Shown here: positions 15,001-21,000 of the stretch, piece after piece
How positions within the stretch are numbered: position 1 is the first letter of the stretch
Layout of the letters: each line of letters starts with the position of its first letter
Origin: Fidelibacterota bacterium
GTDB lineage: Bacteria > Fidelibacterota > Marinisomatia > Marinisomatales > TCS56
Reading direction: 5' to 3'
Assembly (NCBI GenBank): GCA_043822705.1
Contig: JBDRBK010000007.1
Location: forward strand, 1 to 21,088
Length of the DNA: 21,088 nt
Made by a program: the position numbers

Positions 15001-18000
15001 TTATTACCGTGAGCTGCATGGTCAGCGGGCGAGACCTGCGTAGCGTCACCAACGATATTCTGGAAGGTTTGAACAGGCTGACTTTCCCCCCGGACTTCCG
15101 CTGGGAAATCGGCGGCACGGCCGAGGATATGCAGGAATCATTCATGTACCTGGGACTGGCGTTGCTGGCGGCCATCCTGCTGGTCTACATGGTAATGGCG
15201 TCCCAGTTTGAGTCGCTGCTCAATCCGTTTATTATTCTATTCACGATCCCCCTGGCCTTTATTGGTGTGATCTTCGGGTTGTTTGTCTCTGGTACAACCC
15301 TCTCGATCACCGCCATGATCGGCGGCATGCTACTGATCGGTATAGTGGTCAATAACGGTATCGTTCTGGTCGATTATATTAATCAGCTCCGGTTCATCAA
15401 CGGTTACAAGCTTTGGGAAGCGGTAGTCCGCGGCGGCCGCCGGCGGATGCGACCGATCCTGATGACGGCGTTGACGACGATATTTTCGATGACGCCGATG
15501 GCCCTGGAACTTGGCTCGGGTGCCGAAATCTGGGCGCCGATGGCACGGGCGGTAATCGGCGGTTTGACGGCATCGACCTTCTTCACGCTGGTGCTGATTC
15601 CGGTGCTGTATTTCACGATCGAGCGCTGGAAACTCAATCGGGCGATCCGCAAGGGCCGGATCGAGGCCCAGGAAACCGGCCGGCCGGAAGGAGCCAACGC
15701 GCTAGAACTGAACTGAGCCGTTGACGAACATGATCTCAAGGGACTGGTTCCGGTCGAATCAGTCCCTTTTTATTTATCGCTGCGAAACACTTAAATTGCC
15801 ACTGCTATCCGGATGCGCAAACCGGATTGATCATCCTGATTCAGGGTTATGAAAAAATAATCTTATAATACGGGGATACAACTGCTGCCATGCTTGATTT
15901 TACCTTTAGGCCCTTCAATGAAATGACTCCCGCCGACTATGCTAAAGTCGGATTCAAGGGGGGACTGGAAATTCACCAGCAATTGTTGACGGAAAAGAAG
16001 CTGTTCTGCCGCTGCCCGGCCGGGAAGTACAGCTCCGAGTATGATGCCGAAATTCTGCGCCATATGCGCCCGACCCTGTCGGAGTTGGGGGAATATGACG
16101 GTACGGCCCTGATGGAATTCAAAACCCGAAAGGATATTATCTATAATATCCGCCATGAAACCGTCTGCACCTACGAAATGGATGATACGCCGCCATTCGA
16201 ATTGAATGAACAGGCCCTGGATATCGCCCTCGAAATCGGTTTGTTGTACCGCAGCAACATCGTCGACGAAATCCATATTGCCCGCAAACAGTATCTGGAC
16301 GGCAGCATTCCCACCGGTTTTCAGCGCACGGCGATAATCAGTGTGGGCGGTGAATTACAGTTCAAGGATCGGAAAATCGGCATCACCCAGTTGGCCATCG
16401 AAGAGGATGCCTGCCGCGAAGTCAGCGATATCGGGCACACGCGGACCTACCTGACCGACCGGCTGGGGATGCCGCTGATCGAGACCGTCACCGATCCCGA
16501 TATGCGCACGCCCCAGGAACTGGCCGAAGTCGGCAATATCTTCCGTTACCTGACGCGCAGCACGGGCAAGGTCCGCACCGGCTACGGCGCCGCCCGCCAG
16601 GATGTGAACGTCAGCGTGGACGGCGGCACCCGGATCGAAATCAAAGGCGTGTCGCGGATTCGGGCGATACCGCTGCTGGCCTTCAACGAAGCGCAACGTC
16701 AATGGAATCTGCTGCGGATTCGCGAAGAATTGTGGCAGCGCGGCATCACCGGCAAATCGTTCCAGTCGGTCGTCGAGGATCTGACCCGGGTACTGCGCCG
16801 GACGCAGTTCGTCCCGATCAAGAATGCCCTGGCGCAGGATGTGGTCATCAAGGGTGTGTTGCTGCGGGGCTTCCGTGGAATTCTGCGCCGGCCGACCCAG
16901 ACCGATACGACTTTTTCCCAGGAAATCGCAGATCGCGTGCGTGTCGTCGCCTGCCTGACGTCACTGCCCAATATCATTCATTCCGACAGTCCCAGCGAAA
17001 CGCTTACCACTGCCGAGTGGCAGCGGTTAAAAAAGAACCTGCGGGCCCGGGAGGAGGATACGGTGGTGGTCGTCTGGGGGTCGCCCCAGGATGCCCAGAC
17101 CGGCGCCGAGGAGATCGTGATCAGGGCGCGAGAGGCCACGGTCGGGATTCCATCCGAAACCCGCCAGGCCCATGCCGATGGCACCAACGGCTTCGAACGA
17201 ATCCTGCCGGGACCCAATCGCATGTATCCCGATACCGATCTGCCGCCCAAGCGGATCAGTCCCGAACGCCTCGGGCAAATCGCTGACGGCCTGAACGAAA
17301 ATTACTGGGAACGGGTCCTGCGCTACCGCCGGCTGCAACTGCCCGATGATGTGGTCAGTCCGCTGGCACTGTCGGCTTATTTCCCGCTGTTCGACGAAAT
17401 CCTGGCTGCCGGCCGGATTGAACCGCGGCTCGCGGCGCTGGCCCTGGTACAGTTTCCCAAGCGGATCGCCCGCTCGGGCCTGGACATAACACAATTGACG
17501 CCGGCGCTGTTGCGGGATATTTTCCGGTTGCTGGCGGAAGGCCGGATAGTGAAGGACGGACTGCTGACGGTAATGTTGCAGACCTGCCTGCGTGGCCGGC
17601 CGGCTCTGGATGAACTGCCGTCGCCCTGCGCGACAGCGGAACTGGATCAGGTGATCGCGGTCGCCCGTAGCGAGACCGATTCACTGGAACTGGATAATGA
17701 CGAACAACGCGAACTGGTACTGATGGGAATCATCATGAATCGTTTGCGCGGCCGGGTCAACGGCGCGGAGGTTCGGCAGCGTCTGGCAACAAGCGGGAGG
17801 ACAGGTAATAATGGCTGATCAATTTAAAGGTTACCGCGGAGCGGCTCTCGGTACGTTGCGTAATTTCAATACGGAAGTCTGGAGCGATGTGGAAATCACG
17901 ACCGGCAAAGGGCGTTTTACCGGAATCGTTTTGCCGCGTTCGGAGACCGCCGATGACCGGCATATCGTCTTAAAATTGCGGTCAGGTTATAATGTGGGGA

Positions 18001-21000
18001 TCGCAGCAGACACGATCACGGCGATTCGAGTCGATGGGCGTAGGGAAGCCAACTACAAGATACCGGAAAAAGCCTTCCCCTATGATCCGCGCAAGCCCAA
18101 CGTGAAACTGCTGGGCACCGGCGGTACGATTGCCAGCCGGCTGGATTACCGGACGGGGGCGGTGATTCCGGCCTTTACCCCCGGCGAGCTATACGGCTCC
18201 GTACCGGAGTTGGCGGATATCTGCAACCTGGATACGGAAAAGCTGTACGGTGTATTCAGCGAGAATATGGGACCGGAGCAGTGGATCGGCACGGCCCAGG
18301 CGGTGGGCCGGGAAATCGCCAATGGCGCCCAGGGGATCGTGATCGGCCACGGTACCGATACCATGCACCACACCGCCGCCTGTCTCTCGTTTATGGTGCA
18401 GAATTCGCCGGTGCCGATCGTGATGGTCGGCTCCCAGCGCTCCAGCGACCGGCCGTCCTCCGACGCCGCCCTGAATTTGATTCACAGTGTCAAGACCGCC
18501 GCCGAAAGCGATATTGCCGAGGTGCTGGTCTGCATGTTCGGGCCCACATCCGATGAATATGGTCTACTGCATCGCGGCACCCGCGTCCGGAAAATGCACT
18601 CCAGCTATCGTTCCACCTTTCGAACCATCGGTGATATTCCGGTGGCGATGGTGGATCGCAACAAAATCACACCGCTACGCAACGATTACCGCAAGCGCCG
18701 CAGCGACCGCGACGTGATTATCAATACGGCCTTTGAAGAGAAGGTCAGCATCGTTTATTACTATCCCAACATGAAGCCGGATATCATTGATTCCCTGATC
18801 GATAACGGCTACCGGGGAATAGTAATCGCCGGGACCGGACTGGGGCATGTCAACAAGCCGCTTTATCCGGCTTTGCAGCGCGCCCGGGAAAAGAATGTCG
18901 CCGTCTACATGACGGTCCAGACCCTGTGGGGCTATGTTCAGATGTATGTTTACGATACCGGCCGGGACATCATGGAATTGGGCGTGCACCCCTCGGCCAA
19001 CATGCTGCCCGAGGTAGCATACGTGAAACTGGGCTGGGCTTTGGGACAGACCAGCGACCTGGAGCAGGTGCGGGAAATAATGCTGACGCCGATCGTCAGC
19101 GAGATTACCGAACGGGAGCCCAGCAACGGTTATCTGATATTCCAGGGTGGCATCGCCGAAGTGGAGGAATTCATCTCCCGGATCAGGAAATAACCCTGTT
19201 GATGTGATAATGGAGTACAAACCGAGTTCAAAAAACTGCAAATATTTTGCTTTTAATCTTGTCTGAAAAACCGCGACAATGTAGTTTCCATCTACGACTC
19301 CAATGTAAGAATTACGGTGAGTAATTTCTCGACTGGAGGGGTTGGCAAGTGAATACCTATAAAAAGGCTCTGAGTTGGCGCTGGGAGCCTTTTTTTATTT
19401 CAGGACTCGACGGTAGTCGCAATAAGGATCTGCCGGGCGGCGAATCGACGGCGGACCAGCGCTGTTCCGGTTCGGTAATTGATCCGAGATTTATCCGGTA
19501 TCGAAAGTCGCTGAACGGCCGTTATCCGGGAACATTATAGTTACGGATTGTGTAAATTAGACCAGCTATTTGACATGGGGGCGACCGGTTTCGACGGGAT
19601 AGAAAAGCTGTTAAACTGCAGGCGGAGGTCCAGGCATCTCCCAAATCACCTGGAAACACAATAAGTGCCGATTACGGCTACATGGCTGCCGCTTAACTGA
19701 CGGCGACCCGTCCTGTGCAGGATTTGTCTGTGGTCTTGCATAAGGGCGACACATACACGGGCTGGTTTGTTTAGCTGCTCATGCTAAACGAATGAGACAC
19801 TACTGAGCTGGTCCTGACAACTGGGGTCACCGGAAGTTGTCGGGATGAGAAATATCCGGAAGACTAAGCTTGTAGACGTTTTTCAGGGTTCTATTTCGGA
19901 CGGGAGTTCGACTCTCCCCGCCTCCACTGAAAGAATTGATTATATATGATTACGGTCTATGTGTTAACTGGTAAACCCAGAACAAAAGATACGTGGGTAT
20001 TACCAATAATCTTGCCCGCAGGATAAAAGAGCACCAGTCGGCAAAATCAACTGTGCAGAAAATACTCGGGGATTTTCATGTAGTGCTTACCGAAGAATAT
20101 TCCGATTATCGATCGGCCAGGGAACGAGAGAAATTCCTGAAAAGCGGGAAGGGTCGGGCGTGGTTGGATCGACATTTCGGTCGGGACGCGCCTTAGGCGG
20201 AGTGTATCTGGCACGATTGTCGTGTGGTACCCGATCGCAGACAATAAAAATGATTCTTTTAAAGTAACCGGAAAAACCGGTTACTCCAGATCGGATTCAT
20301 CCTTCAGCCGGATGACGCTGGTATTTTCCGGGAATTTGCCGCAGATCCCGGAATAGAATTCCCGCAGGCGGTCCATGTCGGCCTTGACATTGCCGGTAGG
20401 CAGGAACGACAGTCCCAGACCGGCCACCTTACGTTTAAAATCCAGAAAGCCGCACAGCAGCGGCACCTGCGCTTTTAAGGCGATCCAGTAAAAACCGGAT
20501 TTCCAGTATTCCCGCCTGGCCCGCGTCCCGGAGGGCGGAACGACAACTACCAGTTTATCATGTCGCCGGAACTGCTCGACTAACTGCTCGACCAGCCCCT
20601 GCGGAGCGGAGCGATCCACGGCGATTCCTCCCAGGCCGCGCATGAACCGGCCAAATGGTTTTTTGAACAGGGAATCTTTGCCGAACCAGGATATTTTCAG
20701 GCGCAGGCTGAATGTGGCCGCTATCAGCAGCGGAAAATCCCAGTTGCTGGTATGGGGTGCGGCAATCAGAACAAATTTTTCGCCCGGTGGAATTCTGCCT
20801 TCAAGCTTCCAGCCGGCGATCCACAGACCGAAACGGCCGAGTAAATAGGGAATAAATCCGACTACAGGTCCGGAGTGGGCAACGGTTGTACTGCTCATAC
20901 GCGCGCTTTTTTAATTATCTGCATTGACGGAATTTAGATCGCGCGACCCACCATTTTCGGCAATAATCGTATGTGCCGCCATAAAAAACGTGCCAATAAT

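Follow-up and report, generated by a model that had tools for sequence, protein, structure and literature searches.

Genes and features of the gatE-gatD locus

The window, that is, the whole stretch of 21,088 nucleotides analysed here, carries two adjacent genes on the forward strand: gatE (15890-17818, 642 aa), for the kinase/transamidase subunit, and gatD (17811-19193, 460 aa), for the asparaginase-type glutaminase subunit with a GatD_N domain. They overlap by 8 nt and both frames are intact. On the same strand upstream (9417..15716) lie genes for a TetR regulator, an outer-membrane factor, a membrane-fusion protein and an RND pump (Pfam TetR_N, OEP, HlyD_D23 and ACR_tran), an efflux set that is a synteny anchor without functional tie to GatDE. 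A terminator-like hairpin was marked by a consensus scan 3' of the RND gene (15738..15768, + strand; 13 pairs, then TTTATTTAT); being a pattern match only, it is predicted to set gatED apart from the efflux operon. The tmRNA gene downstream (19577-19929, + strand; ARAGORN and Rfam RF00023, 183.9 bits; tag ADYGYMAAA) serves as the other synteny anchor. Flanked by the predicted efflux-operon terminator and the tmRNA gene, gatED may form its own transcription unit.

The initial annotation had described full-length gatE and gatD in this place; the same ORFs were recovered exactly, and both pass curated cut-offs. GatE scores 532.6 bits on the NCBIfam equivalog NF003107 (cut-off 456), and GatD scores 518.5 bits on NF003217 (cut-off 310) and 516 bits on TIGR02153 (cut-off 324). 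In Pfam, GatE matches GatB_N (163.9 bits) and GatB_Yqey, and GatD matches GatD_N, Asparaginase and Asparaginase_C. The cradle of GatE resembles that of GatB and carries an insert that is probably GAD-like; a helical domain and a YqeY-like tail follow. Matches to solved structures are strong for both GatD (Pyrococcus abyssi, E 4.9e-123; Methanothermobacter thermautotrophicus, E 1.5e-120) and, over its full length, GatE (E 5e-98 and 1.3e-94, respectively).

Of 95 bacterial GatD sequences, 94-95 retain the motifs GTGGTIASR (102-110), HGTDTM (180-185) and VRKMH (259-263), with T184 (85/95) and M185 (92/95) less constant. The motifs with T103, T106, T182, D183 and K261 align with the same motifs of the GatD proteins in 1ZQ1 and 2D6F; the Thr, Thr-Asp and Lys are those which we take to be the asparaginase-type catalytic residues. 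The metal/ATP site of the GatE cradle is likewise constant: its motifs GLEIH, DRL, RQD-N-S and R-x-E, with residues G25, E27, H29, D190, R191, R236, D238, N240, S242, R248 and E250, recur in 53-55 of the 55 bacterial-type rows of the alignment. Judged from sequence, the locus belongs to the GatDE family and encodes a predicted heterodimeric tRNA-dependent amidotransferase.

Gln- and Asn-tRNA enzymes of the host genome

The genome to which the window belongs (G000; 3.34 Mb, 218 contigs, 93% complete, 6% contamination) also encodes GlnRS (732 bits, contig C94) and AsnRS (484 bits, contig C136), both above cut-off in profile searches. No GatB was found in this 93% complete genome, where the sole match to the GatB model is GatE (97.5 bits, cut-off 314.8), nor was GatC in a whole-genome check; the best match to the GatA model is a 564-aa amidase with 172 bits, short of the cut-off of 481, so that no GatA was found either. 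The earlier claim that GatDE stands here beside GlnRS and AsnRS, with GatB and GatC missing, is thus borne out.

Further searches of G000 found one GluRS gene, one bacterial-type AspRS plus a fragment, no archaeal-type AspRS2, and two full AsnB-type genes (505 and 452 bits). The 42 tRNAs detected include just two tRNAGln, both ordinary (UUG on C33, CUG on C94), and none was seen to be odd. Two LysRS copies, 96% identical, show that strains are mixed. The position equivalent to Arg358, presumably the mark of a discriminating GluRS when occupied by Arg, is Arg in the GluRS of G000; the same Arg is present in G016, G019 and G104, which have GatCAB only and whose GluRS must be non-discriminating, so that this position does not tell the two kinds apart.

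Distribution, conservation and origin of bacterial-type GatDE

Textbooks assign GatDE, a tRNA-repair enzyme, to the archaea alone. In the GatE tree, the 55 bacterial-type rows form one fully supported clade apart from the archaeal rows, and the closest relatives of the window GatE are all bacterial records. At least 584 species genomes have a relative. GatD is found in 33 of 401 genomes sampled in the phylum of the window, in 3 of 9 genomes of its family (G000 included) and in 32 of 81 genomes sampled in an Ignavibacteria-titled order. The window pair belongs to a bacterial branch of the enzyme family that is large, old and under strong conservation. GlnRS accompanies GatDE in 27/32 and 40/43 GatDE genomes; the coexistence that had been put forward as a natural case is not rare but the norm for this clade. 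Of the genomes tested in the Ignavibacteria-titled order, all five GatD-positive and all five GatD-negative ones have GatB, and the two GatD-positive ones that were also tested for GlnRS have it, which makes GatDE redundant in that order, next to two other systems.

The gatE-gatD pair is adjacent and constant in order in 76 of the 79 related loci examined; L047 and L084 have other ORFs between the two or lack gatE, and L041 and L053 start at gatD. Among these loci there is no further conserved neighbour (the next biggest cluster, a generic ABC ATPase, occurs in 25), and the pair is not accompanied by any conserved third gene, tRNA gene or RNA element. Identity over 64 loci is 79-87% for GatD and 51-68% for GatE, while fourfold-degenerate sites are just 14-51% identical and GC3 follows each host (0.25-0.76). 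Synonymous sites are saturated and purifying selection on GatDE is strong. For comparison, GluRS of G000 is 72% identical to that of G006 in the same family and 35-47% to those of phylum relatives. The window GatD is 80-86% identical to Ignavibacteria-titled copies, against 72-73% to copies of its own order and class, and past GatDE transfers look bacterium-to-bacterium.

A second genus of the family shares the RND efflux-gatE-gatD-tmRNA block in synteny, and a third genus shares its gatE-gatD-tmRNA portion. L020 has the same four efflux genes upstream of gatE (RND 84%, OEP 72% and MFP 76% identical), gatE lies directly 3' of the RND C-terminus in G006, the contig of G001 starts 168 nt before gatE, and the same tmRNA tag follows gatD in L020, L021, G001 and G006. 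Because of this synteny in other genera, the locus is not an assembly artefact, and the worry that the contig is chimeric or contaminated has been refuted. The composition of both genes is host-like: GC is 0.593 for gatE and 0.570 for gatD, with GC3 of 0.72 and 0.71, values equalled or exceeded by 14% and 18%, respectively, of 1154 long ORFs of G000 and shared by the neighbouring RND gene (0.72).

These data bear on the possibility of a recent archaeal import, or of a mis-binned or chimeric contig, in which case the genes need not function in this bacterium. A GC of gatE and gatD slightly above the contig mean, the contamination estimate of 6% and the nearly identical LysRS pair would agree with it. 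It is contradicted by the same bacterial flanking genes in other genera, the tmRNA and bacterial efflux genes on the contig, GC3 within the genome range, a tree in which the nearest GatE are all bacterial and the archaeal sequences form a separate clade, and intact frames under strong constraint; we regard it as extremely improbable. Lateral acquisition as a one-off archaeal import, proposed at first, does not hold against the deep monophyletic clade, family synteny, host-like composition and saturated synonymous sites.

tRNA substrates and tRNA-recognition modules of GatE

Both tRNAGln genes of G000 have U1-A72 and G73. The identity element of archaeal GatDE in tRNAGln is A1-U72 (PMC9499178, PMC2811023); this first pair is absent from both genes. 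The D-stem G10-U11-C12-U13 of tRNAGln is common to tRNAGlu. The tRNAAsn and tRNAGln of this genome both have U1-A72 and 7-nt D-loops, from which tRNAAsp and tRNAGlu differ.

Differences between bacterial-type and archaeal GatE are found in several places of the protein. In the loop before RQD-N-S, position 219 is R in 31/55 bacterial-type rows and G in 81/82 archaeal rows, position 230 is T (27) or R (23) as opposed to R (78), and positions 234-235 are A/A (40 and 30) as opposed to T/I (62 and 75). The archaeal tail is described as having a GxxAxGx motif where GatB has a Lys-rich motif, and this stretch is said to help reject tRNAAsn (PMC2811023). Archaeal rows read G-E-R-A-F-G/S-P here (G in 40/82, A in 50/82), whereas bacterial-type rows have P-E-K-R-x-R-Y/W, and 54/55 of them carry a two-residue deletion; the GxxAxGx motif is not present in bacterial-type GatE, being replaced at the aligned place. 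The GAD-like insert of the window GatE matches the archaeal one in size and place in the alignment, with 19.5 bits on Pfam GAD against a cut-off of 23.4. This cut-off is passed by 1/26 bacterial-type and 22/26 archaeal GatE, and that of the tail domain by 10/26 and 25/26, while catalytic-domain scores are similar (150-182 bits in bacterial-type, 165-206 in archaeal GatE). In bacterial-type GatDE the catalytic core is frozen, but the modules with which GatE recognises tRNA have been remodelled, presumably for the bacterial tRNAGln with U1-A72 and G73 instead of A1-U72.

A possible role in asparagine supply

Between the RND gene and the tmRNA gene, G000 and G006 have gatE-gatD, and G002, G004 and G005 of the same family have a 376-aa AsnA in its place. 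These AsnA score 302-304 bits on TIGR00669 (cut-off 292.8); the same four efflux genes lie upstream, with an RND gene 85-87% identical, and the tmRNA gene lies downstream. Since G002, in the same genus as the GatDE-bearing G006, has asnA at that place and no GatDE, GatDE is dispensable.

Such an exchange could mean that Asp-tRNAAsn is a substrate of bacterial-type GatDE, be it the sole one or next to Glu-tRNAGln. GatDE would then provide a tRNA-dependent asparagine supply, like GatCAB in Deinococcus and Thermus, where AsnRS and GlnRS are present too, and would have replaced asnA in the family. In the family, AsnA occurs in none of three GatDE-positive and in three of six GatDE-negative genomes. 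G001, G006 and G330 carry GatDE without AsnA, an AsnB-type gene or GatB; and the five genomes with AsnA among 81 of the Ignavibacteria-titled order are all GatD-negative. The replaced tail stretch and the likeness of tRNAAsn to tRNAGln in the host point the same way. However, AsnA and GatDE occur together in G082, G145, G106, G109, G152, G138 and G148, and G000 itself holds two full AsnB-type genes. AsnA and AsnB-type genes are both missing in 17/32 GatD-positive and 21/49 GatD-negative genomes of the order, which is no real difference, and GatCAB, its GatB detected in all ten order genomes tested, can already serve asparagine there. The lack of an archaeal-type AspRS2 in G000 also speaks against an asparagine role, and the area adjoining the tmRNA gene may be simply a variable spot. 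We consider this role unlikely.

A wider proposal is that bacterial GatDE is an ancient lineage of its own, sister to all sampled archaeal GatDE and not derived from a modern archaeal group, with tRNA modules rebuilt for U1-A72, and that at the asnA place it acts on Asp-tRNAAsn with or without Glu-tRNAGln. As a whole this seems rather unlikely; if true, a GatDE making asparagine on tRNA would break both the "archaea only" and the "glutamine only" rules.

Function of GatDE beside GlnRS

The reading towards which we lean, with modest confidence, is that the window GatDE is a working Glu-tRNAGln amidotransferase. By analogy with the archaeal enzyme, GluRS would charge part of the tRNAGln with glutamate; GatE would hold the Glu-tRNAGln and phosphorylate the side-chain carboxyl using ATP; and GatD would split glutamine or asparagine and hand the ammonia to GatE, yielding Gln-tRNAGln. 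Because GlnRS works in the same organism, GatDE would be a second route or a clean-up of mischarged Glu-tRNAGln rather than the sole supply. The substrate, the mischarging by GluRS and the physiological reason for two routes are what we infer. Of the second route to Gln-tRNAGln suggested in the initial annotation, the coexistence of a catalytically complete GatDE with GlnRS and AsnRS, without GatCAB, is observed, and the function is the most likely reading.

In favour of this reading are the equivalog scores, the conserved catalytic motifs, the strong purifying selection, the synteny and the D-stem that the host tRNAGln shares with tRNAGlu. Relatives offer some indications. In G106 (94% complete, 2% contamination), GatD and GatE occur with two full GluRS and with AsnRS, and no GlnRS, GatB or GatA was found; this gene set is as expected if GatDE is the route to Gln-tRNAGln. 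In genus g103 (G082, G145), GatDE occurs with two GluRS, one having Ser at the Arg358-equivalent, and the sole GluRS of G148 has Tyr there.

Several observations run against a Glu-tRNAGln role: with GlnRS in G000, a second route is unneeded on paper; the single GluRS keeps the Arg358-equivalent, although GluRS of GatCAB-only relatives do so too; the archaeal A1-U72 is missing and the tail stretch is replaced; and GatDE is dispensable, as G002 shows, and redundant in the Ignavibacteria-titled order.

GatDE might also have been repurposed outside routine translation, for instance to amidate some other acyl-tRNA or a molecule resembling tRNA, or for a role that depends on the asparaginase/glutaminase activity of GatD or on an extra partner. 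This would account for the far higher conservation of GatD than of GatE across the 64 loci and for the persistence of the pair next to GlnRS and GatCAB, being added whichever other Gln/Asn-tRNA systems are there; the weak Pfam matches of the GAD and tail domains, next to a catalytic domain that scores alike, are also consistent with it. Yet the tRNA-linked kinase/transamidase residues are all kept, nothing conserved accompanies the pair in the related loci, the two tRNAGln and the other tRNAs found are ordinary, and the gene set of G106 fits the canonical role. Repurposing is, in our view, quite improbable.

Comparison with known systems

Among the closest known systems are the archaeal GatDE of P. 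abyssi (1ZQ1) and M. thermautotrophicus (2D6F, with tRNAGln), which have the same two subunits in the same domain order (E 1e-94 to 1e-123, full length) and share the asparaginase-type motifs of GatD and the cradle residues of GatE with the window pair. The window differs in its host, a bacterium with GlnRS, and in a host tRNAGln with U1-A72 and G73, not the A1-U72 given in PMC9499178 and PMC2811023. It also falls into a separate fully supported clade, with a different loop before RQD-N-S, the two-residue tail deletion (54/55), and GAD and tail domains that in bacterial-type GatE scarcely match Pfam.

GatCAB is kept beside AsnRS and GlnRS in Deinococcus radiodurans, Thermus thermophilus and Bdellovibrio bacteriovorus, according to PMC4206432. 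There, too, a tRNA-dependent amidotransferase stands beside both direct charging enzymes, and its role is described as amino-acid biosynthesis on tRNA. U1-A72 and a short D-loop likewise mark tRNAGln and tRNAAsn as candidate substrates. The enzymes differ, however: GatA is an amidase while GatD is asparaginase-like, the window has no GatC, and GatE has an insertion domain. Moreover, no second archaeal-type AspRS is found in G000, and the link to asparagine is not general.

Two-GluRS systems are a further parallel. Helicobacter pylori combines GluRS1 with a tRNAGln-specific GluRS2 and GatCAB, as stated in PMC2777447. G106, G082 and G145 resemble it in having two divergent GluRS and an amidotransferase without GlnRS, whereas G000 has one GluRS and GlnRS; in G106 the partner of the GluRS pair would be GatDE, not GatCAB.

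The gatE and gatD genes and their host genome

The window contains two overlapping ORFs on the forward strand, gatE (15890-17818, 642 aa) and gatD (17811-19193, 460 aa), at exactly the positions proposed in the initial annotation. Both products pass curated NCBIfam equivalog cut-offs (GatE, 532.6 bits against 456; GatD, 518.5 bits against 310) and carry the Pfam domains GatB_N and GatB_Yqey in GatE, and GatD_N, Asparaginase and Asparaginase_C in GatD. They also align over their full length with the solved proteins of P. abyssi and M. thermautotrophicus (E of 4.9e-123 and 1.5e-120 for GatD; 5e-98 and 1.3e-94 for GatE), which bears out the identities first assigned to them. 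No RNA run was listed for the 3.3-kb gatE-gatD stretch, and 5 DNA runs each share 0.08-0.10 of its words.

The host genome (G000; 3.34 Mb, 218 contigs, completeness 93%, contamination 6%) encodes GlnRS (732 bits), AsnRS (484 bits) and one GluRS gene. In profile searches of the whole genome, the GatB model matched nothing except GatE itself, GatC was not found, and the best match to the GatA model was a generic 564-aa amidase (172 bits, cut-off 481). The description of this bacterium as having GlnRS and AsnRS and no GatB or GatC therefore holds. Two full LysRS genes with 96% identity (C26:209-1546 and C110:23671-24999) and a second AspRS fragment (C162:68-571) were also observed; for this reason, the MAG is a mixture of closely related strains, and such mixing probably explains much of the 6% "contamination".

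According to the parts of PMC2811023 and PMC9499178 concerned with the enzyme, GatDE is archaeal only. Among the papers listed in searches of the openly readable full-text literature, none has a title or opening lines of an abstract concerned with a bacterial GatDE. Since public annotation pipelines already name such proteins GatD and GatE, it is the analysis of bacterial GatDE, and not the gene call itself, that is new. On the current analysis, the observation is genuine and extends further than the initial annotation supposed.

Conserved neighborhood and residence of the locus

Upstream of gatE lies a TetR-OEP-MFP-RND efflux gene set, recognized by Pfam and ending at 15716, and a 13-bp terminator-like hairpin follows the RND gene (15738-15768, pattern match). 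The tmRNA gene is located downstream of gatD (19577-19929). The related locus L020 has the same order, TetR-OEP-MFP-RND-gatE-gatD-tmRNA, with identities to the window of 84% for RND, 72% for OEP and 76% for MFP, and an identical tmRNA tag. In G006, a genome of the same family, the order is RND-gatE-gatD-tmRNA; in G001, gatE-gatD-tmRNA can be seen on a contig that begins 168 nt before gatE. The gatE-gatD-tmRNA order recurs in genomes of three genera of one family, and this recurrence of order and flanking genes removes the concern that the contig is chimeric.

The GC3 values of gatE (0.72), gatD (0.71) and the RND gene (0.72) lie inside the spread of the genome (median 0.65, 75th percentile 0.70, 1154 long ORFs). 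Across 13 related loci, the GC3 of gatE and gatD tracks each host (0.25-0.76), and fourfold-degenerate sites are only 14-51% identical to the window in both genes. Diverged fourfold sites and host-following GC3 imply long residence, and together with synteny across genera they speak against a recent lateral acquisition. That the genes are an artefact or a recent import is thus very improbable, given the shared gene order in related genomes and the host-like GC3.

A search upstream of gatE for a regulatory leader or known RNA gave just a chance-level McaS match (E 0.33), and no partner gene or tRNA conserved beside gatED was found among 80 related loci. Elsewhere in the window, an ABC set on the reverse strand occupies 3-2820, including an auxiliary protein with ABC_transp_aux and DUF7088; this set resembles GldA/F/G, by which FCB-group bacteria carry out transport for gliding motility. 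A low-GC stretch at 7000-8500 (0.33-0.41 against about 0.55 around it), with a DUF5677 gene (7147-8010, reverse strand) and an adjoining reverse-strand ORF without a Pfam match (8676-9200), looks like a small foreign insert.

Between gatD or asnA and the tmRNA gene, an element of about 120 nt is conserved in an otherwise unconserved spacer. It was found in 6/6 family loci examined: 19275-19397 (forward strand) in the window, L020:9462-9583, L021:3548-3667, L138:12022-12145 and, both on the reverse strand, L139:1153-1273 and L140:767-888. Its predicted fold consists of a three-way stem region and a terminator hairpin followed by a T run. Changes on both sides of a pair are seen in 3 of 36 pairs (e.g. 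C-G to U-A, columns 97/112, 3 vs 3), and no Rfam match was obtained. The element may be a small RNA or an upstream control region of the tmRNA gene.

Distribution and phylogeny of bacterial GatDE

In a word-based protein search with GatD, 8000 candidates were scored; the best 120, the window's own protein aside, were 83-88% identical and all from the bacterial clade, with names pointing to MAGs of Ignavibacteria, Bacteroidota and Chlorobiota or to an unclassified "bacterium". When contigs are taken from one genome per species, a relative is encoded in at least 584 stretches. Most of the best 80 (79-87% identical) bear Ignavibacteria or Kapabacteria titles; some are titled Marinimicrobia, KSB1 or Calditrichia, and a few otherwise. 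GatD exceeds the cut-off in 3 of the 41 nearest-relative genomes (G000 counted), in 33 of 401 genomes of the phylum, which fall under 7 of the 32 family codes, and in 32 of 81 genomes of the order of a genome titled Stygiobacter sp. (locus L071).

Representative proteins were searched exhaustively with GatE, and 661 of them matched at E <= 1e-30. A tree of 137 rows (115 full-length representatives from the best 150 of the 661, the window and 21 loci) divides into two clades of 55 and 82 rows, each with 100% local support, and the smaller clade takes in all 22 genome rows. Among its representatives, 26 were looked up and 3 had names, all bacterial ("Deltaproteobacteria bacterium" twice, "CSSED10-310 bacterium" once); 4 were looked up in the larger clade and 2 had names, both archaeal (Heimdallarchaeota, Thermoprotei). 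The labels "bacterial-type" and "archaeal" for nameless rows depend on the tree and these few named representatives.

A second tree, of a 62-row subset rooted with four GatB sequences, recovered the bacterial-type clade as one branch (SH-aLRT 100), which springs from an unresolved base. Constraining the 29 archaeal rows to one group improved on the quick free search by 54 log-likelihood units (p-AU 0.90), in a test where the group was named after the tree had been seen, sampling was confined to the top 150 matches and the LG+G4 model had no mixtures. These alignments do not reject reciprocal monophyly of bacterial-type and archaeal GatE, which the best tree found displays.

Copies with Ignavibacteria titles share 80-86% identity with the window GatD, which is only 72% identical to a copy from its own order (G330), 72-73% to copies from its class (G208, G235) and 68-69% to those of another genus of the phylum (g86). 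In the GatE tree, the copies of the phylum are split over three separate subclades, and that of the window's family groups with Ignavibacteria and Kapabacteria (100%). Identities and split subclades together indicate that transfer from bacterium to bacterium took place after an early single origin.

Selective constraint and the tRNA-reading parts of GatE

Over the 64 loci with both genes, GatD identity is 79.3-87.2% (mean 82.6) and GatE identity 51.0-67.6% (mean 59.1). The rates of the two genes are thus very unequal across L020-L099, and synonymous sites are saturated in both. For comparison, the housekeeping GluRS of G000 is 72% identical to that of G006 and 35-47% identical to those of more distant phylum members. 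Of 95 bacterial GatD sequences, 94-95 retain the motifs GTGGTIASR, HGTD and VRKMH, and 172 of 460 columns are invariant. The GatE cradle residues (GLEIH, DRL, RQD-N-S, R-x-E) occur in 53-55 of 55 bacterial-type and 71-82 of 82 archaeal rows. In six loci (L043, L056, L068, L070, L075, L076) gatE appears as two ORFs; frameshift errors are likely, several of these loci being long-read assemblies by title. In L073, L085 and L099, gatE and gatD are separated by an ORF of 106 aa that matches Bro-N weakly.

By sequence comparison, the differences between bacterial-type and archaeal GatE are concentrated in the putative tRNA-reading parts. A short basic GatE loop adjoins the tRNA's first base pair, as PMC2811023 reports in its structural description, from which the loop preceding RQD-N-S is inferred to be its counterpart. 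At position 219, 31/55 bacterial-type rows have R where 81/82 archaeal rows have G. The respective counts are T27/R23 and R78 at position 230, A40 and T62 at 234, and A30 and I75 at 235; near the loop, they are T49 and L73 at 189. The archaeal tail reads G-E-R-A-F-G/S-P, the GxxAxGx motif in that description of PMC2811023, whereas the bacterial-type tail reads P-E-K-R-x-R-Y/W, and 54 of 55 rows lack two residues there.

Pfam domains were compared in 26 proteins a side. The catalytic domain scored 150-182 bits in bacterial-type and 165-206 in archaeal GatE; the tail domain exceeded the cut-off in 10/26 against 25/26, and the GAD insertion in 1/26 against 22/26. Pfam seeds are presumably archaeal and favor the archaeal side, but the contrast seen from one domain to another inside the same proteins persists.

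ARAGORN found 42 tRNAs and one tmRNA in G000, an incomplete set in that tRNAHis is absent. Both tRNAGln genes (UUG, CUG) have U1-A72 and G73 and are of bacterial type; the archaeal GatDE identity pair, A1-U72 in the relevant parts of PMC9499178 and PMC2811023, is therefore absent from the host. The tRNAAsn also has U1-A72, and the D-loops of tRNAGln and tRNAAsn are both 7 nt. By comparison, tRNAGlu has G1-U72 and A73, and tRNAAsp G1-C72, with D-loops of 8 and 9 nt. The remodelled loop and tail are what would be expected if the enzyme had been refitted to a bacterial tRNA.

Both tRNAGlu genes (C94:12931-13005 and C129:2898-2970) have the G1-U72 wobble as first pair, with A73. A 12-kb span of C94 takes in tRNAGlu(CUC), tRNAGln(CUG), GluRS and GlnRS, and gltX adjoins glnS in several relatives. 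A tRNA-Sec (UCA) gene is present at C37:16466-16559; the host thus probably uses selenocysteine.

Coexistence with GlnRS and GatCAB

Among the 32 GatD-positive genomes of the phylum other than G000, GlnRS is encoded in 27 and GatB exceeds the cut-off in 4 (G082, G145, G156, G208), with two pieces at contig ends in G134. Genus g103 (G082, G134, G145) has GatDE and GatCAB without GlnRS; GatA was scored in G082 and G145, which also have two GluRS each. Outside the phylum, 40 of 43 GatDE genomes have GlnRS, 39 with a score over the cut-off and one with a split gene. Of the genomes tested in the Stygiobacter-titled order, 5/5 GatD-positive and 5/5 GatD-negative ones have GatB above the cut-off, AsnRS is present in 5/5 GatD-positive genomes tested, and G430 and G442, positive for GatD and GatB, have GlnRS too. 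These counts make GatDE an add-on to GlnRS alone or to GlnRS with GatCAB. It is also dispensable, as G002 is without it although it shares a genus code with G006.

Two of the 32 genomes have neither GlnRS nor GatB. One, G123, is only 84% complete, and GlnRS is found in 16 of 17 genomes of its genus. The other, G106 (94% complete, 2% contamination), has GatD, GatE, AsnRS, AsnA and two full GluRS (569 and 546 bits), and genome profile searches found no GlnRS, GatB or GatA. This single MAG looks like the one case where GatDE is the sole route to Gln-tRNAGln, and its gene set is the main comparative argument for a canonical job of bacterial GatDE. Amidation of Glu-tRNAGln is the likeliest function, a reading we hold with moderate confidence; GatDE would act beside GlnRS as a parallel or corrective route. 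That it is put to another use is a distinctly weaker prospect, and explanations beyond those considered here are about as doubtful, if slightly less so.

Arg358 of T. thermophilus GluRS is presumably a residue by which a discriminating enzyme can be told. Its equivalent was mapped by aligning the G106 GluRS to T. thermophilus 1J09 and then 21 GluRS of the phylum. It is Arg in G000, Ser in one copy each of G082 and G145, and Tyr in the only copy of G148; Arg is also present in the GatCAB-only genomes G016, G019 and G104, and the marker decides nothing in this case. In E. coli, a non-discriminating GluRS is toxic if no amidotransferase is expressed with it. Replacement of a missing glutamine synthetase by GatDE was rejected, PF00120 being present in 5/5 family genomes (G000, G001, G006, G002, G004).

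Alternation with asnA

Three GatDE-negative genomes of the family (G002, G004, G005) have the same TetR-OEP-MFP-RND genes and tmRNA (RND 85-87% identical), but their RND-tmRNA interval is about 1.86 kb, against 3.86 kb in the window. It holds, in the same orientation, a 376-aa AsnA (aspartate-ammonia ligase; TIGR00669, 302-304 bits, cut-off 292.8), located at L138:10729-11859 (forward) in G002, at L139:1423-2553 (reverse) in G004 and in locus L140 in G005. asnA and gatE-gatD (15890-19193 in the window) are thus alternative occupants of one slot, and both states occur within one genus code (gatE-gatD in G006, asnA in G002).

In Deinococcus and Thermus, an amidotransferase serves as the asparagine route. 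The alternation recalls that enzyme, which is kept beside AsnRS and GlnRS according to the portion of PMC4206432 devoted to it. The main rival explanation is that the specificity of GatDE has shifted or widened toward Asp-tRNAAsn. It draws on the shared slot, on the presence of AsnA in 0/3 GatDE genomes of the family against 3/6 others, and on G001, G006 and G330, which have GatDE and in which profile searches found no AsnA, AsnB-type gene or GatB. The asparagine link, however, is not general: AsnA and GatDE coexist in seven phylum genomes, and G000 has two full AsnB-type genes. In the 81-genome sample of the Stygiobacter-titled order, 5/5 AsnA genomes are GatD-negative (chance 0.074 by a hand calculation that ignores kinship), but having neither AsnA nor AsnB-type genes is no commoner with GatD (17/32) than without it (21/49). 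A general anticorrelation of GatDE with AsnA/AsnB fails outside the window's family, and the altered specificity is rather unlikely.

Bacterial GatDE and the archaeal system

A separate GatDE lineage exists in bacteria of the FCB group and in some others; it is old, very strongly constrained (GatD above all) and normally accompanied by GlnRS. This contradicts the textbook assignment of the enzyme to archaea alone and provides a natural test of the co-evolution of GatDE and tRNAGln. In the parts of a review that treat the subject, it is argued that co-evolution of GatDE with the unusual tRNAGln of archaea excluded GlnRS from them, and whether LUCA possessed GatDE is discussed. A large bacterial clade bears on both arguments. 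Alongside GlnRS and an ordinary bacterial U1-A72 tRNAGln, bacterial GatDE functions or is at any rate maintained by very strong selection; the clade is therefore a natural counter-example, and both arguments become testable. It also raises the question of why a costly second route to Gln-tRNAGln, in some orders a third, should be kept. Compared with the archaeal enzymes, those of the bacterial type have unlike tRNA-recognition parts and have kept the chemistry, which is probably the known one.
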